Positions 1 to 36,077 of a stretch of 36,077 nt of DNA are shown piece after piece. This DNA is from a virus. Taxonomy: Duplodnaviria > Heunggongvirae > Uroviricota > Caudoviricetes. Positions within the stretch are counted from its first letter, which is position 1; each line of letters starts with the position of its first letter. The DNA lies in IMG/VR virus record IMGVR_UViG_2851971941_000001, positions 1 through 36,077 of that record; one strand, written 5' to 3'. The position numbers and the translations under genes are program-made. The notes under the pieces were generated by a model. That model did no database searches. It had not been told where the DNA came from and was given only the letters and a program-made list of their open reading frames with translations.

Positions 1-900
1 TTAACGCAACAATGGACAATCTGGTGGTAATCGACAACGCAACGCCGCCGGAAGTATTTCAATATGGAAGTTTTGCCCACTCAACGGTTCGCCATCAAGA
101 TTAAAAGTGATTTCGTGTGGGGCTTGTATATCAAACCACGACGAAGCACCTTCGATAATATTCGGGTTATCTTCGTCAGATTTTAAGGTTGATACGAGAG
201 TCGGAATAATTTCATCGCCGGTAAAAATGCGCAGTTGCAGCAAGCCATCGTTAATTAATGCGTTCGGGCACAATTGTTGACCGCCACCGGCCTGACGCCC
301 GTTACCAATACCAATGACCAGGGCGTCACCTTGCCAGTGAAAGTTTTCACCGCGGATTTCACAACGGTCCGGTTGCAGAGTGTCCATGCGCATTAAGCCA
401 TGAATGATGTAAGAGACGCCACCCAGCGCGGCTTTTAATTTTTCCGGCGTTTCTGTGGTAATACGCGTCCCAAACCCGCCTGTCGCCATATTAATAAAAC
501 AGGTTTGTTTGTTGACCTGCGCCATATCTATCGCAATGGCGTTACCGGCAATTGCCAGTTTCAGCGCCTTATCCAGTGCCTCAGGAATCCCTACACTAGT
601 GGCAAAATCATTGGCAGTTCCTAATGGTAAAATTCCCAGCGCGGGTATTTCATCCCCCTCACATTGAATCAATGCCGTAGAAACTTCATTAATGGTGCCA
701 TCGCCACCACCGGCAATCACTGTTGCGACACCTAACTTCCGGGCCTCCTCTACAAATCGTACGGCATCACCTTTCTCCCAGGTAACCCGCACATGGATCG
801 TCATTCCTTCCTCACGCAACAGCATAATTGCTTCGCGCAAGGGTAGATTGTCAGTACTTTTGCCATTAAGAATCAGTAAGCTGGCGGGAAATTCTGCCAT
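1..900 (-). CDS. yegS: Lipid kinase YegS (diacylglycerol kinase catalytic-domain family), complete host gene
   Basis: 299-aa ORF on minus strand starting [15 protein letters not shown]; contains the GGDGT motif typical of DAGK/BmrU-type lipid kinases; size matches E. coli YegS; lies outside the prophage repeat. Confidence 0.8.
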
Positions 901-1314
901 GATCGTATGTGCCTTTATGATTGGTCTGTAGATAGTGTAGAGCAGAAAAGAAAAGGTGGAGTCAGAACAGGATGAAAGTCGGAGGATAAAAAGTCAGTTC
1001 AGGTATGGGGATTCAGTGCTTACCACCAGGAGCTTACAATGGGGACAGCGAATATTAACGGTAGCCACTGATAAATTTTAAAAAAGAGAATATACCTAAT
1101 ATTCAACTAAACAGTGGCATCTTCAATATACTATTCAAAATATATTAAAGTCCCCCATGGGGTTACCCGGAAGGGCCTCCATGTCTGTAATTCCTACTTA
1201 TGTAGGAAATGTTGTACAGAACATTTATTATAATCCTATTCAATTATAATAATCATGCCATTATTATATTTAAACACTAGAGAATGTCGTTGGTAATTAA
1301 TGGGGGAAGGTAAG

Positions 1315-1632
1315 GTGAAAAAGATAGCTGCTATATCATTAATTAGTGTTTTTCTTATGTCTGGTTGTGCTGTGCATAATGATGAGACAAGTATCGGTAA
1401 ATTTGGCCTTGCATATAAAAGTAATATTCAGCGTAAACTCGATAACCAATACTACACCGAAGCCGAAGCTTCTTTAGCCAGGGGTAGAATATCTGGTGCA
1501 GAAAATATAGTAAAAAATGATGCAACTCATTTCTGTGTTACCCAGGGCAAAAAAATGCAGATAGTTGACCTGAAGACAGAAGGTGCAGGATTACATGGCG
1601 TCGCTCGTCTGACATTCAAATGTGGAGAGTGA
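1315..1632 (+). CDS. yegR: Small host lipoprotein (signal peptide plus lipobox LMSGC); probably YegR
   Basis: ORF 1300..1632; likely true start is GTG at 1315 preceded by a GGAAGG ribosome-binding site, giving 105 aa; hydrophobic N-terminus followed by Cys lipobox; position next to yegS as in E. coli K-12. Confidence 0.5.
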   Translation: MKKIAAISLISVFLMSGCAVHNDETSIGKFGLAYKSNIQRKLDNQYYTEAEASLARGRISGAENIVKNDATHFCVTQGKKMQIVDLKTEGAGLHGVARLTFKCGE

Positions 1633-1958
1633 GAATAGATTCAAGACTACCATGCACATATTTATTTTATCTGTGATGGGATATTCTTCAACACCATTAT
1701 TGAATGTGAGTAATAATGACAAACAGATAGATGAAACTAAAGCAGAATTTTTATTTTATGCAGCCATCAGAAAATGATGTCAAAAATATTCCAATGCTTT
1801 AGGTTCATTTTTTGGTAAGCGTCAAACATGCGCGTTCTGGCTGTGCGTAACCGGAACCTGTGCGAGCACGATGTCGATAAGTGAAAAGCATCGTACTATG
1901 AAGGAGGATTCTATCGATGTGGTCAATGGAAGACGGTGACCAGGGATAGGGCTTATGT

Positions 1959-1987
1959 ATAAAAAATAAGCCCGTGTAAGGGAGATT
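1959..1987. repeat. attL core: 29-bp direct repeat ATAAAAAATAAGCCCGTGTAAGGGAGATT
   Basis: Identical 29-mer recurs at 34543..34571; lies about 80 bp beyond the 3' end of int, as for the P2 att core. Confidence 0.85.
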
Positions 1988-2066
1988 TAGGGTGTCACCA
2001 GTAGGGGCTTTCAACGGTACAATGCGGGTTTGAGCGGCATAAATTACCACTGAAAGCCCTTAAACG

Positions 2067-3080
2067 TTACTCTACTGTGGACACTGTGTGGACACTCTCG
2101 GCCTCAGTACCACCTCTTAGCGGATTAAGAGAAATGGCGTCCTGAAGGTACTCTGGCGCAAAATGAGCGTAAACCATAGTTTGCTCAATCCGCGTGTGAC
2201 CTAGTATCCGTTGTAGCGTGATAATACTTCCTCCATTAATCATGAAATGAGTGGCAAAGCTGTGCCTTAGTGCATGTGTGGCTTGCCCCGTTGGCAAATC
2301 CGGTTTTATTGCTTTCATTGTTCGTCTGAAGCGAGGGTAATCAGCATCAGGGAATAAAAAACCTCGTTTGTTATCCGCGATCATTTTGGCAACAGCCTCT
2401 GAGATCGGGACGGTGCGTGGTTTGTTTGTTTTCGTTTTAACAAACGTGACGCGGTTATGGATGATATTTTCTGCTTTCAAACGAGCTGCTTCTCCCCAAC
2501 GTGCTCCTGTACTCAGGCAAAGAATCGCAATCTTTTTATTGTCGCCGTCAAGTGCTGCAAGCAGTAAGGCAATTTCTTCCTGTGTGAGATAGCCTGTTTC
2601 TGGTTTTTCCTCCTTAAGCCTCTTTGTCCCTCTGATAGGGTGCTCACCAAAGAATAACTCCGCTTCAATCAGGGCTGTAAACATGCCGCTAATACATGTT
2701 AAATCACGATTGATACTCGAAGGTTTAATACCCTGACTTCTTCGGGTGGCGCAGTACTGGCTGATAAGGGATTTCGTGATTTGAAATGCGCATGGGTCAT
2801 TCGTTATTTTTGTGAAGATTTCAATTTTTCCAAGATTAGATTTCCCATGCTCTTCGTGTTTACCCTTTAAATCCCACCAGATCTGTGTCAGTTCCGACAG
2901 ACGTCGTTTGTCTGTTGGTTTTGATAGCCATTCTTTATTGTGGTGGTTGTACAACGTGTATTTTTCGAAAGCGACAGCTTCGCTTTTCTTATCAAACTTC
3001 CTACGGATGCGTTTTCCGTTACGTCCAGTAGGGCGGATGTCCACTTCATATCGACCATCATCGAGTTTTTTGATTGCCAT
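2067..3080 (-). CDS. int: Tyrosine site-specific integrase, P2 Int-like (337 aa)
   Basis: 337 aa, the same length as P2 Int; C-terminal catalytic signatures HALRHSFATHF and LGHTRIEQTMVYAHF (R/H-x-x-R and catalytic Tyr); adjacent to att core. Confidence 0.9.
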   Translation of the reverse strand: MAIKKLDDGRYEVDIRPTGRNGKRIRRKFDKKSEAVAFEKYTLYNHHNKEWLSKPTDKRRLSELTQIWWDLKGKHEEHGKSNLGKIEIFTKITNDPCAFQITKSLISQYCATRRSQGIKPSSINRDLTCISGMFTALIEAELFFGEHPIRGTKRLKEEKPETGYLTQEEIALLLAALDGDNKKIAILCLSTGARWGEAARLKAENIIHNRVTFVKTKTNKPRTVPISEAVAKMIADNKRGFLFPDADYPRFRRTMKAIKPDLPTGQATHALRHSFATHFMINGGSIITLQRILGHTRIEQTMVYAHFAPEYLQDAISLNPLRGGTEAESVHTVSTVE

Positions 3081-5384: not shown

Positions 5385-5656
5385 GTATTCGTATTGAAAT
5401 TGGCGAACGTTATGTCGTTACCAGTGACAGCTTTCAGTTTATTCTCCACGAGAAAAAGAGAGCGGAAAGCGGTAAAAACGCCGGTCAGGAATGGCTGGCG
5501 GTGGTTGGTTATTACCCGAAATTAAGCCAGCTCGTTTCCGGCCTGATGCATCACGATATTCTGACCGGAAGCGCAAAGTCTTTTGCTGATTTAAACGCGC
5601 AGGTTGAGCAACTCAGCAGGCGTTGTTCAGAGGCTTTTGGCTCATATGGCCGTTAA
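5381..5656 (+). CDS. Small early protein, P2 orf83-like
   Basis: 91 aa; ATGA overlap with upstream gene; synteny. Confidence 0.5.
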   Translation: MSIRIEIGERYVVTSDSFQFILHEKKRAESGKNAGQEWLAVVGYYPKLSQLVSGLMHHDILTGSAKSFADLNAQVEQLSRRCSEAFGSYGR

Positions 5657-7919
5657 AGCCTCCGGGCGTTTTGTCCCTCCGTCAGCATTTGCCGCAGGCA
5701 CCGGTAAGATGTTTACCGGTGCTTATGCATGGAACGCGCCACGCGAGGCTGTCGGGCGCGAAAGACCTCTTACACGTGATGAGATGCGTCAGGTGCAAGG
5801 TGTTTTATCCACGATTAACCGCCTGCCTTACTTTTTGCGCTCGCTGTTTACTTCACGCTATGACTACATCAGGCGCAATAAAAGCCCGGTGCACGGGTTT
5901 TATTTCCTCACATCCACTTTTCAGCGTCGTTTATGGCCGCGCATTGAGCGCGTGAATCAGCGCCATGAAATGAACACCGATGCGTCGTTGCTGTTTCTGG
6001 CAGAGCGCGACCAGTATGCGCGCCTGCCGGGAATGAATGACAAGGAGCTGAAAAAGTTTGCTGCCCGTATCTCATCGCAGCTTTTCATGATGTATGAGGA
6101 ACTCTGCGATGCCTGGGTGGATGCGCATGGCGAGAAAGAATCGCTGTTTACGGATGAGGCGCAGGCTCACCTCTATGGTCATGTTGCTGGCGCTGCACGT
6201 GCTTTCAATATTTCCCCTCTCTACTGGAAAAAATACCGTAAAGGACAGATGACCACGAGGCAGGCATATTCTGCCATTGCCCGTCTGTTTAACGATGAGT
6301 GGTGGACTCATCAGCTTAAAGGCCAGCGTATGCGCTGGCATGAGGCGTTACTGATAGCTGTCGGGGAGGTCAATAAAGACCGTTCTCCTTATGCCAGTAA
6401 ACATGCCATTCGGGATGTGCGTGCACGCCGCCAGGCAAATCTGGAATTTCTTAAATCGTGTGACCTTGAAAACAGGGAAACCGGCGAGCGCATCGACCTT
6501 ATCAGTAAGGTGATGGGCAGTATTTCTAATCCTGAAATTCGCCGGATGGAGCTGATGAACACCATCGCTGGAATTGAGCGTTACGCCGCCGCAGAGGGTG
6601 ATGTGGGGATGTTTATCACGCTGACCGCGCCGTCAAAGTATCACCCGACTCGTCAGGTCAGAAAAGGCGAAAGTAAAACCGTTCAGCTTAATCACGGCTG
6701 GAACGATGAGGCATTTAATCCAAAGGATGCGCAGCGTTATCTCTGCCGCATCTGGAGCCTGATGCGCACGGCATTCAAGGATAATGATTTACAGGTCTAC
6801 GGTTTGCGTGTCGTCGAGCCACACCACGACGGAACGCCGCACTGGCATATGATGCTTTTTTGTAATCCACGCCAGCGTAACCAGATTATCGAAATCATGC
6901 GTCGCTATGCGCTCAAAGAGGATGGTGACGAAAGAGGAGCCGCGCGAAACCGTTTTCAGGCAAAGCACCTTAACCGGGGCGGTGCTGCGGGATATATCGC
7001 GAAATACATTTCAAAAAATATCGACGGCTATGCACTGGATGGTCAGCTCGATAACGATACCGGTAAGCCGCTTAAAGATACTGCCGCGGCTGTTACCGCA
7101 TGGGCGTCAACGTGGCGCATCCCGCAATTTAAAACGGTTGGACTGCCGACAATGGGGGCTTACCGTGAACTACGCAAATTGCCTCGCGGCGTCAGTATTG
7201 CTGATGAGTTTGACGAACGCGTCGAGGCTGCTCGCGCTGCCGCAGACAGTGGTGATTTTGCGTTGTATATCAGCGCGCAGGGTGGGGCAAATGTCCCGCG
7301 CGATTGTCAGACTGTCAGGGTTGCCCGTAGCCCGTCGGATGACGTTAACGAGTACGAGGAAGAAGTCGAGAGAGTGGTCGGCATTTACGCGCCGCATCTC
7401 GGCGCGCGTCATATTCATATCACCAGAACGACGGACTGGCGCATTGTGCCGAAAGTTCCGGTCGTTGAGCCTTTGACTTTAAAAAGCGGCATCGCCGCGC
7501 CTCGGAGTCCTGTCAATAACTGTGGAAAGGTCACCGGTGGTGATACTTCGTTACCGGCTCCCACACCTTCTGAGCACGCCGCAGCAGTGCTTAATCTGGT
7601 TGATGACGGTGTTATCGAATGGAATGACCCGGAGGTCGTGAGGGCGCTCAGAGGTGCATTAAAACACGGACTGAGAACACCAAATCGTCAGCAAAGAAAC
7701 GGAAGCCCGTTAAAACCGCATGAAATAGCGCCATCAGCCAGGCTGACCCGGTCGGAACGATTGCAAATTACCCGTATCCGTGTAGACCTTGCTCAGAACG
7801 GTATCAGGCCGCAGCGATGGGAGCTTGAGGCGCTGGCGCGTGGTGCAATTGTGAACTATGGCGCAAAAGAATTTCATTACCATGTTCAGAAGGCGTGGGA
7901 AGCATTTTCGAGGTGGTAA
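5646..7919 (+). CDS. A: Rolling-circle replication initiator/endonuclease, P2 gpA-like
   Basis: ORF 5604..7919 (771 aa); probable start at internal Met MAVKASGRF; contains HxH-type motif PHWHMMLF and a two-tyrosine active-site motif YIAKYISK typical of rolling-circle Rep proteins; size close to P2 A. Confidence 0.85.
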   Translation: MAVKASGRFVPPSAFAAGTGKMFTGAYAWNAPREAVGRERPLTRDEMRQVQGVLSTINRLPYFLRSLFTSRYDYIRRNKSPVHGFYFLTSTFQRRLWPRIERVNQRHEMNTDASLLFLAERDQYARLPGMNDKELKKFAARISSQLFMMYEELCDAWVDAHGEKESLFTDEAQAHLYGHVAGAARAFNISPLYWKKYRKGQMTTRQAYSAIARLFNDEWWTHQLKGQRMRWHEALLIAVGEVNKDRSPYASKHAIRDVRARRQANLEFLKSCDLENRETGERIDLISKVMGSISNPEIRRMELMNTIAGIERYAAAEGDVGMFITLTAPSKYHPTRQVRKGESKTVQLNHGWNDEAFNPKDAQRYLCRIWSLMRTAFKDNDLQVYGLRVVEPHHDGTPHWHMMLFCNPRQRNQIIEIMRRYALKEDGDERGAARNRFQAKHLNRGGAAGYIAKYISKNIDGYALDGQLDNDTGKPLKDTAAAVTAWASTWRIPQFKTVGLPTMGAYRELRKLPRGVSIADEFDERVEAARAAADSGDFALYISAQGGANVPRDCQTVRVARSPSDDVNEYEEEVERVVGIYAPHLGARHIHITRTTDWRIVPKVPVVEPLTLKSGIAAPRSPVNNCGKVTGGDTSLPAPTPSEHAAAVLNLVDDGVIEWNDPEVVRALRGALKHGLRTPNRQQRNGSPLKPHEIAPSARLTRSERLQITRIRVDLAQNGIRPQRWELEALARGAIVNYGAKEFHYHVQKAWEAFSRW

Positions 7920-8029
7920 TCTAAATATGAAAAATCTGCACACCGAAACACTCTTGTAGGTTGATAATTTGCAAACTAGGTGGATTTACTCTTTGATGTG
8001 TAAGAAGTTATACTACAAAAAATTGATTT

Positions 8030-8950
8030 ATGGGCTTGGCGATGTATAACGATCCTTATAGTGACCCAAAAGCGTGGGAATCATATTTCAAAAATATTGT
8101 TTGGCTACATTATAAGCCTGCTAACTGTTGTGACTTGCCAGATGAGCATGGAGGCGACTTTGGGCTGGAGTGTTACACTCTGAGTGGTCATGTTTTTCAG
8201 TGTTACTTGCCTGAGCAGTCGAGTGATATTGATAAGCTTTATAAAGCGCAACAAAAAAAGATTTATACTGATATAAAAAAGTTTTCTCAGGATAACATTA
8301 AAGAATTAGAGGAGCTTTTTGGCACATTAAAAATTAGCCGCTGGATATTAGCTACACCATATAATAAATCGGCGAAATTAAGTCAATATTGCACAAAAAA
8401 ATCATTAAAAGTAAGAGAGTTAGGGATTTCTTACGTTGCTGATGATTTTCAAATAGTAGTGCAAACAGATCGAAATTATATAGAAGAAGCGTTCTTTCTT
8501 CGCAAAAATAACTATCAATTAAGCTTTAATATAAATGATGCGACGGCTGAGAATGCTGCTAACTTTATTAGTGAAAATACATCTTTTTTAGATAAGCTAA
8601 ATTTAAAATTACCTAAGATAAATGATGATGTATCTAGGCAGGGTTTATATAGAGAGTTTTTAATACAAAAATATCTTGATTATCAAAACTTGCTGGATGC
8701 TTTGAAGAGAGACTGGGTTGATATCTATGAAATTATCTATAACTGTGTTCAACATAGAGAACGTAATTTGGTAGGTCTCTTTCTTCTTACTTCATCAGAT
8801 GCGAAACCATCAGATATAATGAAAGATGAAATCGCTTTGTTAAAGAAATGTATTGAAGAGGAAGTTAGTACGCTTAAACAGGCTGACTTGGATAAGATAA
8901 CATGGGGAGTTATTTCTGATTGGCTTATAAGATGCCCTTTAGATTTTTAG
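8030..8950 (+). CDS. Cargo operon gene 1: 306-aa protein of unknown function, candidate effector of a defence system
   Basis: AT-rich ORF; first gene of a three-gene unit with 1-bp intergenic gaps; N-terminal Cys/His/acidic cluster CCDLPDEHGGDFGLECY...GHVFQCY; no confident family assignment. Confidence 0.6.
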   Translation: MGLAMYNDPYSDPKAWESYFKNIVWLHYKPANCCDLPDEHGGDFGLECYTLSGHVFQCYLPEQSSDIDKLYKAQQKKIYTDIKKFSQDNIKELEELFGTLKISRWILATPYNKSAKLSQYCTKKSLKVRELGISYVADDFQIVVQTDRNYIEEAFFLRKNNYQLSFNINDATAENAANFISENTSFLDKLNLKLPKINDDVSRQGLYREFLIQKYLDYQNLLDALKRDWVDIYEIIYNCVQHRERNLVGLFLLTSSDAKPSDIMKDEIALLKKCIEEEVSTLKQADLDKITWGVISDWLIRCPLDF

Positions 8951-8951
8951 A

Positions 8952-9428
8952 ATGGAAAAGCAAATGCATATAACGATAGATGAAATAATAGGAAGGCCGT
9001 TTACGTTTAATAAACGACCTGAACATTTGCCATGTGATATGAGACCATTGTGGCGTTGCAGTTTGTTGCTGATAATATTCCTTGTCACAGGGAGAGCTGG
9101 TTGCTGTTCTTTAAAAAAACTTCATTTAATTAATTGGATGTTAAAGTCAGAGAATAATGAAGCAATGTTTGAATTCTGGCTTTTAAACAAAGAAGGTTTA
9201 AAGCCTGAAGTAAGATTGGATCCAACTTTAGATAGAGCAATACAGCTATTATTAGCAGAGGATTTTATTTTGAGAAATGAACGAGCGTTCAAAATAAATG
9301 AAAAGGGGCTTAAGGTCGCTGAGAAATTGCTTTCTCTTGATGTGTTCAAAGAAGAAAGGTTGGTGCTAAATAAACATAAGGCTGGACTGTCCGAAACTAA
9401 CATTAATAAAATATTTCAGGTGGGTTAA
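8952..9428 (+). CDS. Cargo operon gene 2: 158-aa protein of unknown function
   Basis: ATG 1 nt after upstream stop and stop 1 nt before downstream ATG (translational coupling); AT-rich; no recognisable motif. Confidence 0.55.
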   Translation: MEKQMHITIDEIIGRPFTFNKRPEHLPCDMRPLWRCSLLLIIFLVTGRAGCCSLKKLHLINWMLKSENNEAMFEFWLLNKEGLKPEVRLDPTLDRAIQLLLAEDFILRNERAFKINEKGLKVAEKLLSLDVFKEERLVLNKHKAGLSETNINKIFQVG

Positions 9429-9429
9429 T

Positions 9430-11451
9430 ATGTCGTTGGAAATTATTTCATTGGAGTTAGTAGCAAATACTTCGGATGGGCGTTATGGTGTTAGTATACC
9501 TTTTTCAAATGGCTTGTTTTTATTAAGAGTTGAGAATTCTCATGGTAAATCAACTTGCATGAATGGGATTGCATATGCACTTGGGATGGAAAAGGCATTA
9601 GGTGTCGGTTCTGGAAAAATCCCATTCCCTCCATCTTTGACTAGAGCACTAACGACAAAAGATAATGTTGAAGTTAGTGTAATATCATCTTATGTTTTGC
9701 TAAAAATAAAGAATCATAAGGGAATAGAAGCATCTTTGAAAAGGAATATTATCGGTCACGATAATAATAATGTTATTTATATAGATGAGAAGAATAATGT
9801 AAAAAGTAAGAGTGGTACTTATTTTTTACATAGAGAGGGCGATACTGAAAGGGAACGTGGTTTCTATAAGTGGTTAGCTGATTTTATAGGTTGGAGTTTG
9901 CCAAATGTTCCAAACCATAATGGGAAGGACACTATTCTTTATCCATCCGTACTTTTCCCTGCATGGTATGTTGAGCAAAAAAAAGGATGGTCGTCAATTA
10001 TGGCGACTGTACCAACACAATTTGGAATTAAAGAGCCAAAGAAAAGAGCTCTAGAATTTTTAATGTCTCTTGATGTTAATGATAATATTTTATTGCGTAG
10101 TTCGTTAAGAAATGAACTTGATATTATTTATCATGATTGGAAGTTAATTAAACACAATGCAGAAGTTATTGCTTCTAAATTGTCGTCAGTTGTCACAGGG
10201 ATTCCTGAACAACCAGTGGCAAAATTTGATCATTATAAGATAGATTTGATTATTAAAAATGGTAGTGTCGTTAGATCTATTGTTGATGTTCGTAATGAAC
10301 TGGAAAAAGAGTTGCAAGAAATTAAGTTTGACACTCTTGGTGAGCAAGAAGAACAAACTTTACAATTATCAGTGGTTAAGTTATTAGGTCAAAAAAATGA
10401 TGAAATTAACTCTCTGGAATTAAAGATTAAAGAGATTTGTGAGCATAGAAGTTATATTCAATATCAAATTCAGGCGACCAAAAACAGATTGTATAATCTG
10501 TTGGAAGATAAAAGGAAGTATGAAGATTTAAAGAAAATATCATCTTCGGATGCGTATAAGTCAACAGATTTAATGTCAAATATTTGTCCGACTTGTGGTG
10601 CAAGTTATAATGATAATTTGCTAAGTTTTTCATCGCAAGAAAATCTGATGACATATGAAGATAGTTTGAACTTTATTAAAGAGCAAGTAAAAGCATTTGA
10701 GTTTGTTCTGTCGGATAGTGAAAAGCAATTAAAGCTTAAAGATGTTGAGAGGAGTGATTTAGAGGGGGAAATAGCCAAGATTAGAGTTGATATTAATGCA
10801 TTAAGGGAGTCAAAATATCCCTCAATGGTTGTTCAGGAGGAGTTTCTGAGACGTAAAATAAACATTGAGAATAAAATTAATGCCATTAACGATGGCATTA
10901 AAAGTATATTGGACATTAGACTGGAGTTGGATTCATTACACCGTAGATATAAAAAGCTTATCGCGAAAAGAAAAGGATTGCCAGATAATTTCTTGTCGCG
11001 TAATGATGCCGATAAGTTAAAATTTCTTAATAAAGAAGTCGTTGCACGATTAGAAAAATATAATTTTACAAGTTTTGATTCTAAACTTGTGTCAATATCA
11101 GAAGATAATTACTTACCTACTAGGGAAGGATATGATATAGGTTTTGACACATCAGCTAGTGATGGAATAAGAATCATTTGGGGTTATTTAATAAGTTTAT
11201 TTGTTGTTGGTTCTAAATTTCAAACAAATCACCCTGGATTGATTGTGTTTGATGAGCCTCGTCAACAAGAAGCAAATAAAGTAAGTTTTGCCGAGTTACT
11301 TAAAGATGCTGCAGAAACAACAAAAGGACAAGGGCAGATCATTTTTGCTACATCAGAAGATGAAAATGTCTTAAAAGAGGCATTAGAAGGGTATGACTAT
11401 ACAATGATATCCTTTGATAAGAACAATGGGAAATTGTTGAGGAAATTATAA
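9430..11451 (+). CDS. Cargo operon gene 3: SMC/Rad50-like ABC ATPase with coiled-coil and central CxxC hook-like motif (673 aa)
   Basis: Walker A-like ENSHGKST (nt 9544..9555 encode GKST); Q-loop-like YVEQKKG near residue 183; long E/K/L-rich heptad-like region about residues 290-540 with CPTC at residues 386-389 (nt 10585..10596); Walker B LIVFDEP (DE at nt 11251..11256) then IIFATSED; no TOPRIM or nuclease domain after the ATPase. Confidence 0.75.
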   Translation: MSLEIISLELVANTSDGRYGVSIPFSNGLFLLRVENSHGKSTCMNGIAYALGMEKALGVGSGKIPFPPSLTRALTTKDNVEVSVISSYVLLKIKNHKGIEASLKRNIIGHDNNNVIYIDEKNNVKSKSGTYFLHREGDTERERGFYKWLADFIGWSLPNVPNHNGKDTILYPSVLFPAWYVEQKKGWSSIMATVPTQFGIKEPKKRALEFLMSLDVNDNILLRSSLRNELDIIYHDWKLIKHNAEVIASKLSSVVTGIPEQPVAKFDHYKIDLIIKNGSVVRSIVDVRNELEKELQEIKFDTLGEQEEQTLQLSVVKLLGQKNDEINSLELKIKEICEHRSYIQYQIQATKNRLYNLLEDKRKYEDLKKISSSDAYKSTDLMSNICPTCGASYNDNLLSFSSQENLMTYEDSLNFIKEQVKAFEFVLSDSEKQLKLKDVERSDLEGEIAKIRVDINALRESKYPSMVVQEEFLRRKINIENKINAINDGIKSILDIRLELDSLHRRYKKLIAKRKGLPDNFLSRNDADKLKFLNKEVVARLEKYNFTSFDSKLVSISEDNYLPTREGYDIGFDTSASDGIRIIWGYLISLFVVGSKFQTNHPGLIVFDEPRQQEANKVSFAELLKDAAETTKGQGQIIFATSEDENVLKEALEGYDYTMISFDKNNGKLLRKL

Positions 11452-11574
11452 ACTTTTATGTTGCTGCATTAGAATGCATGATTATTGTTTATCTGTTAAG
11501 AGTGCTCCGTGCCAGTGTCGGCGCGGAGAAATCATGTCATGCACCTGCATTAAAACCGACCCATGAAGCGGGCG

Positions 11575-11593
11575 GGCGAGGCGGGGAAAGCAC
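11575..11593. other. Candidate cos site: 19-nt GGCGAGGCGGGGAAAGCAC
   Basis: Exact 19-mer seen in the GC-rich non-coding stretch between the cargo operon and Q, the expected cos position; the match to the P2 cohesive-end sequence is recalled from memory, not looked up. Confidence 0.6.
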
Positions 11594-11735
11594 TGCGCGC
11601 TGGCGGTGGTGCTGATTTTATTTTTTCAGCGTCTGAGCGCGTCGTGATGGCGTTTAGATTGTTCGCCGGGGCGTTGGTGTGTCTGCGGGATGTTTTGTGC
11701 GGTGGTGAGCGTGTGAGGGCGTGATGACAGGGTGT

Positions 11736-11761: not shown

Positions 11762-12796
11762 TCAGCCGTTGTCAGTGTCCAGTGAGTAGTTTTTAAAGCG
11801 GATGACCTCCTGACCTAGCCAGCCGTTTATCTCGCGGATCCTGTCCTGTAACGGGATAAGCTCATTGCGGACAAAGACCTTTGCCACTTTCTCAATATCA
11901 CCCAGCGACCCGACGTTCTCCGGCTTGCCGCCCATCAACTGAAAAGGGATGCGGTGCGCGTCCAGCAGGTCTGCGGCGCTGGCTTTTTTGATATTAAAAA
12001 AATCGTCCTTCGTTGCCACTTCACTGAGCGGGATAATTTTAATGCCGTCGGCTTTCCCTTGCGGGGCATAGAGAAACAGATTTTTAAAGTTGTTGCGGCC
12101 TTTCGACTTCACCATGTTTTCGCGGAGCATTTCGATATCGTTGCGATCCTGCACGGCATCGGTGACGTACATGATGTATCCGGCATGTGCGCCGTTTTCG
12201 TAATACTTGCGGCGGAACAGCGTGGCCGACTCATTCAGCCAGGCAGAGTTAAGGGCGCTGAGATATTCCGGCAGGCCGTACAACTCCTGATTAATATCCG
12301 GCTCCAGCAGGTGAAACACGGAGCCGGGCGCGAAGGCTGTCGGCTCGTTGAAGGATGGCACCCACCAGTAAACATCCTCTTCCACACCACGGCGGGTATA
12401 TTTTGCCGGTGAGGTTTCCAGTCTGATGACCTTACCGGTGGTGCTGTAACGCTTTTCCAGAAACGCATTACCGAACACCAGAAAATCCAGCACAAAGCGG
12501 CTGAAATCCTGCTGAGAAAGCCACGGATGCGGAATAAACGTTGAAGCCAGAATATTGCGTTTAACGTAAATCGGTGAGCTGTGATGCACGGCAGCACGCA
12601 GGCTTTTTGCCAGACCGGTAAAGCTGACCGGTGGCTCATACCATCTGCCGTTACTGATGCATTCGACGTAATTCAGAATGTCACGGCGGTCGAGTACCGG
12701 TACCGGCTCACCAAAGGTGAATGCCTCCATTTTCGGGGCGCTGGCGGTGATTGTTTTTGCCGCAGGTTGCGGTGTTTTCCCTTTTTTCTTGCTCAT
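11762..12796 (-). CDS. Q: Portal protein, P2 gpQ-like (344 aa)
   Basis: 344 aa, the same length as P2 gpQ; start overlaps stop of P; first genes to the right of cos on the opposite strand. Confidence 0.85.
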   Translation of the reverse strand: MSKKKGKTPQPAAKTITASAPKMEAFTFGEPVPVLDRRDILNYVECISNGRWYEPPVSFTGLAKSLRAAVHHSSPIYVKRNILASTFIPHPWLSQQDFSRFVLDFLVFGNAFLEKRYSTTGKVIRLETSPAKYTRRGVEEDVYWWVPSFNEPTAFAPGSVFHLLEPDINQELYGLPEYLSALNSAWLNESATLFRRKYYENGAHAGYIMYVTDAVQDRNDIEMLRENMVKSKGRNNFKNLFLYAPQGKADGIKIIPLSEVATKDDFFNIKKASAADLLDAHRIPFQLMGGKPENVGSLGDIEKVAKVFVRNELIPLQDRIREINGWLGQEVIRFKNYSLDTDNG

Positions 12797-21013: not shown

Positions 21014-21799
21014 TTATGAGTGGTTTTTATTTGATGCTTTGTATTCTAAAACCTTCTTATTGGCGTAAAGGAATTTTGCATATGACAGGAATATAAGCAG
21101 ACCTGAAATGAAATAGGTTAGGGATATTATTAATAATGTTTTTCTGTGGCTGTTATTATCTTTGATCTCCTGACTTAACCATTCGGAGTCCTCCTCGTTT
21201 AGCTGTAAGAGCTTATTGCAGGCGATTTCAGGAAGTGTGTCTTTTATAAATACGTTTTGCAGTCTCTTGCAATCGGCAAGGCTATAAGTTTTATTAAATT
21301 CAACTGCTTTATTTTTGAAGGATAAAAGAACTTTGTCACTATAAACATAGTACATCATGTTTTTATATGGTATACCTATGGCATCCCTTACTATAGCGGA
21401 TTGTTCATTGTGTATGTAACATGCGAAGATAATATAAAGAATTCCGGCCAGGACTGCACTCATTGTTTTTGTGATGCATAGCGGTTCTGTTATGTCTCCC
21501 CAGAAGCGAGTAAGGAAAAAATCCGATGTTTTTAGTTTTCCATCAATCAGCCCCTGCTGTATCATTCTCACATCTTCGATGCCTGATACATTGATTCCGT
21601 TAAGTGTTTTAAATAGTTGAATGTCGCGCCACTCGCGGTCCAGTCTTTTTAATTTTTTGTCTGAATATCCAAATTTGAAATAATGTGCAATAAGCCTCAT
21701 AAGGTTACTTTTACCAAAGCTAAAAAATGCTAATACTGCAAAGACCAAAAGATACAAAACGATTAGCTCCCACACATTAGTCACATTATAGCTGACCAT
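21014..21799 (-). CDS. Cargo gene at S-V junction: 261-aa multi-pass membrane protein of unknown function
   Basis: Strongly AT-rich, opposite strand to the flanking late operons (the position P2 uses for orf30); hydrophobic segments LIVLYLLVFAVLAFFSF, AVLAGILYIIFACYI and LLIISLTYFISGLLIFLSY. Confidence 0.6.
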   Translation of the reverse strand: MVSYNVTNVWELIVLYLLVFAVLAFFSFGKSNLMRLIAHYFKFGYSDKKLKRLDREWRDIQLFKTLNGINVSGIEDVRMIQQGLIDGKLKTSDFFLTRFWGDITEPLCITKTMSAVLAGILYIIFACYIHNEQSAIVRDAIGIPYKNMMYYVYSDKVLLSFKNKAVEFNKTYSLADCKRLQNVFIKDTLPEIACNKLLQLNEEDSEWLSQEIKDNNSHRKTLLIISLTYFISGLLIFLSYAKFLYANKKVLEYKASNKNHS

Positions 21800-26859: not shown

Positions 26860-27029
26860 GTTGTATGAGCTCTGGTGTGGGCTTACATATCTATGGCACA
26901 GAGAAAAGTCTAATCTGACAGTCCGCTCTGTGCCAGGAACGGATGTTGCTAACAGCGTAGTGTGTTAATATATAAGGCGCAGGTCAGCTTATCTCTCATC
27001 AACTGTCTGAATTCTTGAGGAGCAGTAGT

Positions 27030-27539
27030 ATGGCAGTAATTCCTAGACGAAACGCACCAAGTAAAAAAATGATCTGGCAATACTGGATTGACAATGGAAT
27101 TCAAAGAGGTTTGGATGATACGCGCTATGATAATGCGTGTGATTTCAATGTATGTGTCTGCTGTGGCCGCGAATCCTCGAAATTGGAGAGGGCGCATATT
27201 ATCCCTCACTCATTAGGCGGAAGTAATGATGTCTCAAATTATATTCTGCTATGCAGTAAATGCCATAGAGAAAGCCCAGATATTGCTAATGAATCTGCGC
27301 TTATTGAATGGATGAATGAGCAACCTACTGAAATGGACAGCATGTTAAAACTAATCCAACAGGAAATGGATAAATATAATAAAGAAACTCAAATGGAAGT
27401 TGATGAGGTTCAGATTAAAGAGATTTTCAGTGATTTATTTAAAAGGGCAGGGACGCATGGTGGTAGATTTTCTGATGCAACCAAGGTGTATATTATTAGG
27501 GAGGCTTTGAAAAAAATATTTAGTCAGACTGCTTTATGA
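27030..27539 (+). CDS. Cargo gene at G-FI junction: HNH endonuclease-domain protein (169 aa)
   Basis: ORF 27015..27539 begins on TTG; likely ATG at 27030 with GAGGAG ribosome-binding site; HNH signature CVCCGR...ERAHIIPH...SNDVSN...LLCSKCH (paired Cys plus His-Asn-His); AT-rich. Confidence 0.75.
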   Translation: MAVIPRRNAPSKKMIWQYWIDNGIQRGLDDTRYDNACDFNVCVCCGRESSKLERAHIIPHSLGGSNDVSNYILLCSKCHRESPDIANESALIEWMNEQPTEMDSMLKLIQQEMDKYNKETQMEVDEVQIKEIFSDLFKRAGTHGGRFSDATKVYIIREALKKIFSQTAL

Positions 27540-34715: not shown

Positions 34716-36077
34716 TCACTTACCGTGGGGGTTACGCGTGGTTTCCCCGGAGAAATTACGCATCAGCAGCGCGTAATTTAGCTCAAGATCCTGCGGCACC
34801 GGGAGCCACACAGTATAACCATCGCCTGGTGCGACCGGCATCGCTTCACCTTTGGCGTTTTCCATATGCTCAAGGGTAAAGTTAATGTTGCCTTGCGGCG
34901 TCATCAGCTCAAGGCTGTCGCCAACGGAGAATTTATTTTTCACCGCTACCGCCGCGAGCTCCCCCTTGCGCTCACCGGTAAACTCACCAACAAACTGCTG
35001 ACGGTCAGAAACCGAATAACCGTATTCGTAGTTCTGATAATCGTCGTGGGTATGACGACGCAGGAAACCTTCGGTATAGCCACGATGCGCCAGACCTTCC
35101 AGCGTTTCCAGCAGGCTGGTATCGAACGGTTTGCCCGCAGCGGCGTCATCGATAGCTTTACGGTAAACCTGCGCGGTGCGTGCGCAATAGTAGAAAGATT
35201 TGGTACGGCCTTCGATTTTCAGCGAATGCACGCCCATTTTGGTCAGGCGTTCAACATGGGCGATGGCGCGCAGATCTTTCGAGTTCATGATGTAAGTGCC
35301 GTGCTCATCTTCAAACGCGGTCATATACTCGCCCGGACGCTGGGCTTCTTCGATCATAAACACTTTGTCGGTTGGCGCGCCGATACCCAGCGTCGGCTCA
35401 ACATTTTGCACCGGAATCGGCTCGTACTTGTGTACGATGTTGCCGACGTCATCTTCTTTCCCTTCCTGGACGTTGTACTCCCAGCGGCAGGCGTTGGTGC
35501 AGGTGCCCTGGTTCGGGTCGCGCTTGTTGATATAGCCAGAGAGCAGGCAGCGACCGGAGTAGGCCATGCACAGCGCGCCGTGAACGAAGATTTCGATCTC
35601 CATATCCGGCACCTGATTGCGGATCTCTTCAATCTCTTCCAGTGACAGTTCGCGAGAGAGGATCACGCGGGTCAGACCCATTTGCTGCCAGAATTTTACC
35701 GTCGCCCAGTTTACGGCGTTAGCCTGTACCGAGAGGTGGATTGGCATTTCCGGGAAGTGCTCACGCACCAGCATAATCAGCCCTGGATCGGACATAATCA
35801 GCGCATCCGGCCCCATTTCCACCACCGGTTTCAGGTCACGGATAAAGGTTTTCAGCTTGGCGTTGTGCGGTGCAATGTTGACCACGACATAAAACTTTTT
35901 CCCCAGCGCGTGGGCTTCATTGATGCCGAGCTGAAGATTTTCGTGGTTGAATTCGTTGTTGCGCACACGCAGGGAGTAACGCGGCTGGCCCGCATAAACA
36001 GCATCTGCGCCATAAGCGAAAGCGTAACGCATATTTTTCAGCGTTCCCGCCGGGGAAAGGAGTTCCGGTTTAAACAT
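34716..36077 (-). CDS. trhP: Peptidase U32-family protein YegQ (TrhP), complete host gene
   Basis: 453-aa ORF on minus strand starting MFKPELLSPAGTLKNMRYAFAYGADAVYAGQPRYSLR, typical of U32 family; size matches E. coli YegQ; outside the prophage repeat. Confidence 0.75.
   Translation of the reverse strand: MFKPELLSPAGTLKNMRYAFAYGADAVYAGQPRYSLRVRNNEFNHENLQLGINEAHALGKKFYVVVNIAPHNAKLKTFIRDLKPVVEMGPDALIMSDPGLIMLVREHFPEMPIHLSVQANAVNWATVKFWQQMGLTRVILSRELSLEEIEEIRNQVPDMEIEIFVHGALCMAYSGRCLLSGYINKRDPNQGTCTNACRWEYNVQEGKEDDVGNIVHKYEPIPVQNVEPTLGIGAPTDKVFMIEEAQRPGEYMTAFEDEHGTYIMNSKDLRAIAHVERLTKMGVHSLKIEGRTKSFYYCARTAQVYRKAIDDAAAGKPFDTSLLETLEGLAHRGYTEGFLRRHTHDDYQNYEYGYSVSDRQQFVGEFTGERKGELAAVAVKNKFSVGDSLELMTPQGNINFTLEHMENAKGEAMPVAPGDGYTVWLPVPQDLELNYALLMRNFSGETTRNPHGK

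Follow-up and report, generated by a model that had tools for sequence, protein, structure and literature searches.

The open reading frame at positions 9430-11451 of a P2-like Escherichia coli prophage encodes a 673-residue ATPase with a single CxxC motif in its middle. The window, the whole stretch of DNA that was analyzed, is 36,077 nucleotides long. The protein is very probably LmuB, the Rad50-like ATPase that acts as sensor in a type II (short) Lamassu system of three genes (lmuA-lmuC-lmuB) carried by the prophage as cargo, and the system is an ordinary, uncharacterized member of a known family.

The PADLOC model for LmuB (PDLC03863) matches the translation over its full length, residues 1-669, at 1.1e-98, and the ten PADLOC models that match the protein are LmuB models only. 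The clade to which it belongs comprises about 800 clusters at 50% identity (E 1e-30 or better). Pfam detects in the window's LmuB only a sub-threshold AAA_23, the Rad50/SbcC-type head domain, which is found in 33 of 55 members of the LmuB family, and NCBIfam gives zero matches for LmuA, LmuC and LmuB. Single-sequence searches of the three proteins against PDB sequences returned nothing meaningful; the PDB chains that match LmuB by sequence are weak Rad50 head and hook matches only, and the LmuA profile finds only coiled-coil noise among PDB sequences.

The genes upstream of lmuB also match PADLOC Lamassu models, and the three form a co-directional operon in the order A-C-B, with 1-13 bases between stop and start codons; lmuB starts one base past the lmuC stop and is preceded by GGTGGG 7 nt upstream. 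In the prophage the cassette is flanked by gpA, a replication gene, and by the portal gene, and this slot is a published defense hotspot of P2. Its GC content is 0.32-0.35 (about 33%), compared with 0.52-0.57 in the flanking phage genes. On the right the slot is limited by a 19-base stretch that we take to be the cos sequence of phage P2, and bases 11535-11600 match P2-like phages at 94-98%. A trio of genes encoding 300, 154, and 680 amino acids is conserved in mobile islands of Pantoea, where it adjoins an integrase, and of Pseudomonas, where it lies near MobI; the tightly packed A-C-B operon thus travels as a unit on mobile elements. Of 5426 E. coli genomes, 2132 match the flanks but only 32 carry the cassette, which is missing from sequenced P2-like phages. 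The 32 complete E. coli genomes with the cassette prophage include O145:H28 outbreak strains. The coordinates of the cassette and of the features discussed below are collected in Table 1.

Table 1. Features of the Lamassu cassette and its surroundings, in window coordinates
Feature	Position	Strand	Basis
Candidate sigma-70 promoter TTTACT-18-TATACT upstream of lmuA	7985..8014	+	Consensus scan only, 9/12 matches; weak
LmuA effector, 306 aa (longest ORF)	8030..8950	+	PADLOC, AF2, fold matches
LmuC middle component, 158 aa (longest ORF)	8952..9428	+	PADLOC PDLC03871, 2.5e-23
LmuB SMC/Rad50-like ABC ATPase, 673 aa	9430..11451	+	PADLOC, AF2 model, Foldseek
Walker A/P-loop V34-ENSHGKST42 (K40)	9529..9555	+	Conservation
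Q-loop YVEQKKG, residues 180-186 (Q183)	9967..9987	+	String search, conservation
Ascending coiled-coil arm, residues 216-372	10075..10545	+	AF2, heptad periodicity, couplings
Zinc-hook motif C386-P-T-C389-G390	10585..10599	+	Conservation, 1l8d alignment, published LmuB hook pattern
Descending coiled-coil arm, residues 409-543	10654..11058	+	AF2, couplings
ABC signature-like motif S575-A-S-D-G579	11152..11166	+	Conservation
Walker B LIVFDEP 604-610, catalytic glutamate E609 kept	11239..11259	+	String search, conservation
19-base match to P2 cohesive end (cos), right-hand limit of cargo slot	11575..11593	+	Exact single match

The small middle gene, encoded between lmuA and lmuB as in type II or short Lamassu, likely starts at 8964, the RefSeq start, which gives an LmuC of 154 amino acids; a gene of 153-154 amino acids occupies the same place in the Pantoea and Pseudomonas loci. 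The start of lmuA is likewise likely to be at 8042, as in RefSeq and most homologs, giving 302 amino acids. LmuA matches its PADLOC model at 1.1e-29 over residues 12-299, and its AF2 model consists of an N-terminal PD-(D/E)xK-like domain (approximately residues 1-160) and a helical C-terminal domain (approximately 170-306), so that an N-terminal effector domain and a Lamassu-type C-terminal domain are found together beside lmuB, with no Pfam C-terminal-domain family matched. The best fold matches are the solved LmuA structures 9nxx and 9hr5, with the Cap4-type nuclease of LmuA and the FokI-type nucleases as the nearest relatives in fold. The expectation that any nuclease activity would come from a partner of the ATPase therefore agrees with the predicted restriction endonuclease-like fold at the N terminus of the upstream protein.

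The AF2 model of LmuB (pLDDT 84.4) describes an ABC head in which an antiparallel coiled coil intervenes between the Walker A half and the Walker B half, the architecture of an SMC/Rad50-like ATPase to which PADLOC, the motifs, Foldseek, and evolutionary couplings also point. The ascending arm is built of helices 216-250, 284-300, and 308-372 with a small beta insert at 254-283, the descending arm of helices 409-460, 464-515, and 524-543, and the loop between them (373-408) carries the CPTC. Confidence is lowest in the loop region, with a pLDDT of 44-58 over residues 371-410. The two arms contain 117 and 124 helical residues, respectively, which places their midpoint at 379.5, and their lengths, compared for covariation between ascending and descending arm, are almost constant in the family (sd 1-2 residues). 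Heptad periodicity is modest in the three long helices (p about 0.03-0.04 in each) and absent from the heads. The description of residues 290-540 as rich in E, K, and L holds, but only mildly, since these residues make up 35.5% of that region and 28.4% of the whole of LmuB. The couplings, taken from a gap-filtered run in which some indel-related pairs persist (columns 315/316, 441-443, 471, and 515), fall on an antidiagonal at i+j of about 778, from which the apex of the hairpin is located near residue 389. Among the 50 strongest arm-to-arm couplings, 34% lie at i+j = 778 +/- 6, with 9.7% expected, a share reached by 2 of 2000 random draws. Antiparallel packing is thus read from how the secondary structure is laid out, together with fold matches and couplings, rather than from inspected contacts. 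Foldseek ranks solved LmuB chains first (9uxh_F at 8e-15, then 9hqx_B/f, 9hqu_A, and 9ux7_A) and Rad50 (7zr1) next, which bears out the SMC/Rad50-type reading of the earlier note, and structural alignment gives only 12-14% identity to the solved LmuB chains. LmuB has a Rad50/LmuB-like fold with an antiparallel coiled coil and an invariant CPxC at its tip.

The set of ATP-binding and hydrolysis motifs in LmuB is intact. Exact string search found ENSHGKST, YVEQKKG, and LIVFDEP where the earlier note had read them, at residues 35-42, near 183, and at 604-610. Conservation was followed in 108 close, full-length homologs of at least 28% identity and in 148 cluster representatives of 26-39% identity. 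N36, G39, K40, and S41 of Walker A are invariant in the close set, as are E182, Q183, G186, and W187 of the Q-loop, with Q183 retained in all 148 distant representatives, and D608, E609, and P610 of Walker B are invariant in both sets (108/108 and 148/148). A motif with A576, S577, and D578 invariant in homologs lies 27 residues ahead of Walker B and, by its likeness to the signature serine S536 of SalEnt LmuB, may act as the ABC signature. Walker A does lack its canonical first glycine, as had been remarked: position 34 is V here and never G among the close homologs, and across the distant representatives it is A in 118, G in 16, S in 6, and V in 3. The 63 residues that follow Walker B form the remainder of the ABC head in the AF2 model, and this, with the span of the PADLOC profile, confirms that no nuclease is fused to the protein.

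Three peculiarities remain, all invariant or near-invariant across the clade: the intact Walker B glutamate, the Walker A without its first glycine, and a QxY in LmuA. Previously studied LmuB proteins carry D-Q in Walker B and the window's LmuB keeps D-E, so its ATP turnover and switch behavior may differ from theirs. Q57-x-Y59 of LmuA, where strand 3 ends, stays invariant in homologs as distant as one of 30% identity and, judged by fold topology rather than by residue-level structural alignment, would occupy the site of (D/E)xK. Because characterized LmuA proteins have a catalytic lysine (K57 or K68), the nuclease chemistry of the window's LmuA is not assured. Should these three features be functional, LmuB could be a sensor that truly hydrolyzes ATP and resets itself, and LmuA an effector with a noncanonical active site or target. 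A system derived from Lamassu in which LmuB is a switch reset by real ATP turnover, and in which the LmuA head differs from a plain double-strand DNA nuclease in its chemistry or target, would account for them, the more so as a "prototypical" Walker A has been reported for LmuB. We nevertheless regard such divergence as unlikely. The glutamate is within the variation hhhhD[Q/S/T/E] reported for Walker B of short Lamassu, the fold of LmuA is still nearest to known LmuA nucleases, and its active site could be completed by K77/K84 and by the conserved acidic residues, of which D43 and E47 are invariant and E17 and D38 are conserved at 90% or more.

The published layout of LmuB is head, coiled coil, and zinc hook, the last with the pattern "CPxCG or similar". 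The protein has only four cysteines (43, 337, 386, and 389), and when four cysteines are placed at random, 1.8% of simulations contain a CxxC. Both C386 and C389 are invariant in the two homolog sets (108/108 and 148/148), P387 is kept in all 108 close and in 147 of the 148 distant homologs, and a CxxC occurs once, and only once, in every one of the 148 distant representatives. The lone CPTC is found by string search at residues 386-389, close to the midpoint of the helical arms, and both the AF2 model, which puts it where the chain turns from the ascending to the descending helices, and the coupling apex of the antiparallel hairpin agree with the position at the tip that the earlier note had proposed. 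A conserved CxxC at a coiled-coil apex, the defining feature of a zinc hook, is therefore present in LmuB on the evidence of conservation, the predicted loop, and the couplings. The hook-region profile aligns CPtCGqeysD in register with CPVCGRELTD of the Pyrococcus furiosus Rad50 hook (1l8d), a weak match that is not significant alone (E 0.06). The motif was thus correctly seen from the sequence, although the earlier note had not recognized the defined Lamassu system, and it is not new, being already described for the LmuB family. By analogy with that family, LmuB would bind zinc and dimerize through it. Two segments close to the hook, D360-KRKYEDLKK369 and S412-LxFIKxQ419, are conserved as well.

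Thiol-disulfide oxidoreductases also have a CPxC at their active site, and the hook profile picks up "CPECGK" strings of C2H2 zinc fingers as well, so that the CPTC might be read as a redox dithiol of the glutaredoxin or DsbA kind, or as half of an intramolecular zinc finger, instead of an intermolecular hook. Both readings are very unlikely and were rejected. There is no thioredoxin fold, the motif being in a loop between two 60-residue helices at the coupling apex, and no second conserved Cys/His pair lies nearby, C337 and H339 not being conserved; with one CxxC per protein throughout the distant set, one LmuB chain cannot supply four ligands. The hooks of two chains are also juxtaposed in solved LmuB dimers, although the zinc is not resolved even in the cryo-EM maps of these homologs. 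A hook mutant of the Salmonella Lamassu system loses defense; some functional LmuB proteins, such as that of Vibrio cholerae, are without a hook, so that Lamassu function does not depend on a hook in every system.

The resemblance of fold and hook to Rad50, together with a Walker B glutamate that is intact as in repair enzymes, might suggest a true Rad50/SbcC homolog that serves phage replication or recombination rather than a defense sensor. This is an exceedingly improbable reading, and it was rejected because no Mre11/SbcD-type phosphoesterase is adjacent (the two upstream neighbors match LmuA and LmuC, and Pfam assigns neither to a nuclease or phosphatase family), because the arms of about 120 residues are far shorter than those of repair enzymes, and because solved LmuB chains outrank Rad50 in the fold search. 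Foreign GC content, a variable cargo slot, and rarity among E. coli genomes and P2-like phages do not suit a repair gene either. There is next to no probability that the protein belongs to another ABC-ATPase defense family of the P2 hotspot, OLD, Gabija GajA, or PARIS AriA, and these were rejected despite the use of the same slot by P2 old and the presence of AriA among the lower fold matches (E about 4e-6) and as a weak head match by sequence, because PADLOC gives LmuB models only (best 1e-98) with zero OLD or Gabija matches, TOPRIM is absent in Pfam and PADLOC, no domain lies past the head in the AF2 model, and the partners are LmuA and LmuC.

For LmuB in a Lamassu system, published work supplies a mechanism in which LmuA is sequestered near the hook, activation follows the sensing of DNA ends, and the active form of LmuA is a tetramer. 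Transferred to this locus on the model of solved homologs, it would have two LmuB chains joined at their tips through a single zinc ion, with two cysteines contributed by each CPTC motif, and the folded dimer with LmuC would grip the C-terminal domain of one LmuA close to the hook, keeping that LmuA monomeric and inactive. When the ATP-dependent heads met DNA ends or replication structures made by an infecting phage, LmuA would be released, would oligomerize through its C-terminal domain, and would cut DNA indiscriminately. The infected cell would then die or stop growing, and the population carrying the prophage would be protected. Protection against phages or plasmids, dependent on ATP binding by LmuB and on an intact LmuA active site, has been shown for other Lamassu systems, and by analogy the cassette in the window may confer it as well.

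RefSeq labels lmuA, lmuC, and lmuB "hypothetical protein", and PHROGs lists them as of unknown function. The gain for annotation is that three hypothetical genes can be named as a Lamassu system, and the significance beyond that is small. The locus could nevertheless serve as a convenient E. coli-native Lamassu for two questions left open in published work. One is whether ATP hydrolysis or mere ATP binding is needed, for which the natural Walker B glutamate permits a clean E-to-Q mutant that is not possible in the Lamassu systems studied so far; the other is zinc binding by the hook, which cryo-EM has not resolved.

Among known systems, the Salmonella enterica LmuACB (9hqu, 9hqx, and 9hr5; Li et al., bioRxiv 10.1101/2025.03.14.643221) shares with the present locus the A-C-B order of three genes, an LmuB with ABC head, short folded coiled coil, zinc hook, and Walker A lysine (K40 here), and an LmuA that combines a restriction endonuclease fold with a C-terminal oligomerization domain, both predicted here. 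The hook is required for defense in that system (Li et al., bioRxiv 10.1101/2025.03.14.643221). The two LmuB proteins share only 12-14% identity, however, and the Salmonella proteins have D-Q in Walker B and a catalytic K68 in LmuA, where the window has D-E and, at the inferred equivalent site, Q57-x-Y59. The LmuB of V. cholerae DdmABC/Lamassu Vc-Cap4 (9nxx, 9ny1, 9ny5, and 9uxh) has a deviant Walker B and is reported in one paper to be hookless, in contrast to the invariant CxxC here. Rad50/SbcC, as represented by P. furiosus Rad50 (1l8d), likewise has an ABC head split by an antiparallel coiled coil that is tipped by a CPxCG, its arms running to several hundred residues instead of about 120; it works with an Mre11/SbcD partner that LmuB lacks, and the setting of LmuB is a defense cargo slot and not a repair operon. 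P2 Old is an ABC-type ATPase used against other phages and, like the present cassette, is encoded in the gpA-to-cos cargo slot of P2-like phages. Old, however, is a single polypeptide with a fused TOPRIM domain and without a hooked coiled coil, whereas the present system has its nuclease-like domain in a second protein, LmuA, and its hook in the ATPase.

The CPTC motif of LmuB, the sensor ATPase of this three-gene Lamassu cassette, lies at the apex of a predicted antiparallel coiled-coil hairpin, and its two cysteines are conserved throughout the clade. Exact string searches of the LmuB translation bore out the motif positions previously read from it (see the table). LmuB contains only four cysteines, at positions 43, 337, 386, and 389, and four randomly placed cysteines produced a CxxC in 1.8% of simulations; taken alone, the presence of the motif is only mildly improbable. 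It is conservation, not the chance figure, that argues for a real motif. C386 and C389 are kept in 108/108 full-length homologs, at identities down to 28%, and in all 148 cluster representatives that an exhaustive profile search recovered at 26-39% identity, each of which contains exactly one CxxC. P387 is retained in 108/108 close and 147/148 distant homologs. Some of the best-conserved stretches of the LmuB family lie on either side of the hook (D360, R362-K363-Y364-E365-D366-L367, K369; S412-L413, K417, Q419).

The AlphaFold2 model of LmuB, built from 55 homologs (mean pLDDT 84.4, pTM 0.67), places the CPTC in a low-confidence loop between two arms that contain 117 and 124 helical residues. 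Heptad periodicity is modest in the three long helices (p about 0.03-0.04 each) and none was found in the heads. The E/K/L enrichment claimed for residues 290-540 is present but mild (35.5% vs 28.4%). An independent test of the hairpin came from mean-field direct-coupling analysis of 248 sequences after removal of gap-rich columns: the band i+j = 778 +/- 6 holds 34% of the top 50 arm-to-arm couplings, compared with 9.7% expected, and only 2 of 2000 random draws matched this enrichment. The coupled pairs, which include 329-448, 357-416, 364-413, 350-427, 347-427, and 319-455, indicate antiparallel arms with an apex near residue 389, on the CPTC. A previous coupling attempt was dominated by gaps and was uninformative, as was arm-length covariation.

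Features of LmuB, the Lamassu cassette and the surrounding prophage
Feature	LmuB residues	Window coordinates	Strand	Basis or remark
N-terminal ABC half-head	about 1-215			AlphaFold2 model
Walker A, ENSHGKST	35-42	9529-9555		exact string search; coordinates include V34
Q-loop-like, YVEQKKG	180-186			exact string search
First arm, helices	216-250, 284-300, 308-372			AlphaFold2 model
Loop with CPTC, low confidence	373-408			AlphaFold2 model
CxxC motif, CPTC	386-389			exact string search
Second arm, helices	409-460, 464-515, 524-543			AlphaFold2 model
C-terminal half-head	554-673			AlphaFold2 model
Walker B, LIVFDEP	604-610	11239-11259		exact string search
yegS/yegR		1-2000		interval of the left flank that holds them
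Integrase		2067-3080	-	
Replication gene		5604-7919		
lmuA		8030-8950	+	306 aa, PADLOC LmuA 1.1e-29
lmuC		8952-9428	+	158 aa, PADLOC LmuC 2.5e-23
lmuB		9430-11451	+	673 aa, last cassette gene
Match to P2 cohesive end		11575-11593		19 bases, exact
Portal gene		11762-12796	-	
261-aa ORF		21014-21799	-	phrog_2407
HNH endonuclease		27015-27539	+	174 aa
Peptidase U32 gene		34716-36077		interval of the right flank that holds it

PADLOC recognizes LmuB over its full length (1.1e-98; nine other LmuB models hit it as well), and the best Foldseek match in the PDB is the solved Lamassu LmuB 9uxh_F (8e-15), followed by 9hqx_B/f, 9hqu_A, and 9ux7_A and, after the LmuB chains, by Rad50 (7zr1), SMC, MukB, and JetC. 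In sequence searches, the only matches of the family profile were to the head of Rad50 (E 3e-3) and to its zinc-hook fragments 1l8d and 6zff; a hook-region profile sets CPtCGqeysD in register with CPVCGRELTD of 1l8d at a non-significant E of 0.06. The Rad50/SbcC-type head domain AAA_23 was detected in 33 of 55 family members. The observation made in the earlier note is confirmed, and its interpretation as a Rad50-like hook, with zinc binding and dimerization expected by homology, is supported. The locus is an ordinary, uncharacterized member of the Lamassu family with predicted nuclease and defense roles, and its novelty is accordingly low.

The expectation that nuclease activity would be supplied by a partner protein is supported at the fold level, because the N-terminal domain of the effector LmuA is predicted to adopt a PD-(D/E)xK restriction-endonuclease fold. 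In the AlphaFold2 model of LmuA (pLDDT 88.5) this domain is alpha-beta-beta-beta-alpha-beta and the C-terminal domain is helical, and Foldseek ranks V. cholerae LmuA (9nxx) and Salmonella LmuA (9hr5) highest. Residues P37, G42-D43, G45, E47, Q57-C58-Y59, K77, D81, and K84 are invariant in the family, and D38 is nearly so; the region 37-84 reads PD..GDxGxE..FQxY plus K77, D81, and K84. The QxY, retained in a Pantoea homolog of 30% identity, is positioned at the end of strand 3. By fold topology it would correspond to the (D/E)xK site, with tyrosine where the catalytic lysine is expected, and if that equivalence holds the canonical lysine is missing at this site, in contrast to the LmuA proteins studied so far, which depend on K57 or K68.

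The cassette has a GC content of 32-35%, against 52-57% in neighboring phage genes, and each stop almost abuts the next start. For both lmuA and lmuC, the start of the longest ORF lies four codons upstream of the RefSeq start (8042 and 8964, respectively), and most homologs imply 302 and 154 aa. An identical cassette (100%) is present in 32/5426 complete E. coli genomes, where its genes are labelled 'hypothetical protein'; in PHROGs all three proteins are of unknown function, and the cassette was not found in the collection's sequenced phages, whose matches cover only the flank. A 300/154/680-aa trio is also encoded by Pantoea dispersa, in an integrase-linked island, and by Pseudomonas cavernae, near MobI.

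The host-gene flanks and the position of the integrase indicate that a P2-like prophage, integrated beside yegR/yegS, is complete within the window. Directly downstream of the cassette is the cohesive-end match, which we take to be P2 cos, and this would place the Lamassu genes at the far right end of the packaged genome. The 261-aa ORF, in a 38% GC island between a virion-morphogenesis gene and baseplate gene V, has no match in Pfam or PADLOC, belongs to a PHROG of unknown function and may be additional prophage cargo. The HNH gene (PF14279 and PF01844, about 1e-10), for which PADLOC finds weak similarity (1e-5) to a type IV methyl-directed restriction enzyme, is in a lower-GC stretch flanked by the tail sheath gene and a gene for tail-fibre assembly, presumably the second P2 cargo slot, Z/fun. 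The cassette itself is located between the replication and portal genes; the gpA-portal slot holds the gene old in P2 itself and is a published defense hotspot of P2-like phages.

By homology with solved systems, the LmuACB complex most likely acts by restraint and release of LmuA. Two LmuB chains, each folded back on itself, would join at their hooks, and LmuC and the LmuA C-terminal domain would dock beside the hook, as they do in solved systems, keeping LmuA monomeric and inactive. Sensing of DNA ends, together with ATP, would set LmuA free to tetramerize and cleave DNA, thereby aborting the infection. We infer that the conserved hook-flanking segments fit a surface to which LmuC and LmuA bind.

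The zinc hook of LmuB is already in the literature, and the present finding is thus a correct rediscovery; short LmuBs possess zero, one, or two CxxC copies, and the Bacillus LmuB has 285-CQYC-288. Differences from studied Lamassu systems are small and mostly inside reported variation. In the present LmuB, no histidine was visible at the inferred H-loop position, where residues 640-643 are A-T-S-E. LmuB of V. cholerae, Salmonella, and Bacillus has a deviant Walker B with D-Q, in contrast to the D-E retained in all 256 sequences examined from the present clade; the short Lamassu Walker B has been reported as hhhhD[Q/S/T/E]. The LmuB Walker A is prototypical in the literature, whereas the missing first glycine recorded in the earlier note proves to be a feature of the clade, in which V, A, or S occupies that position and G is rare.
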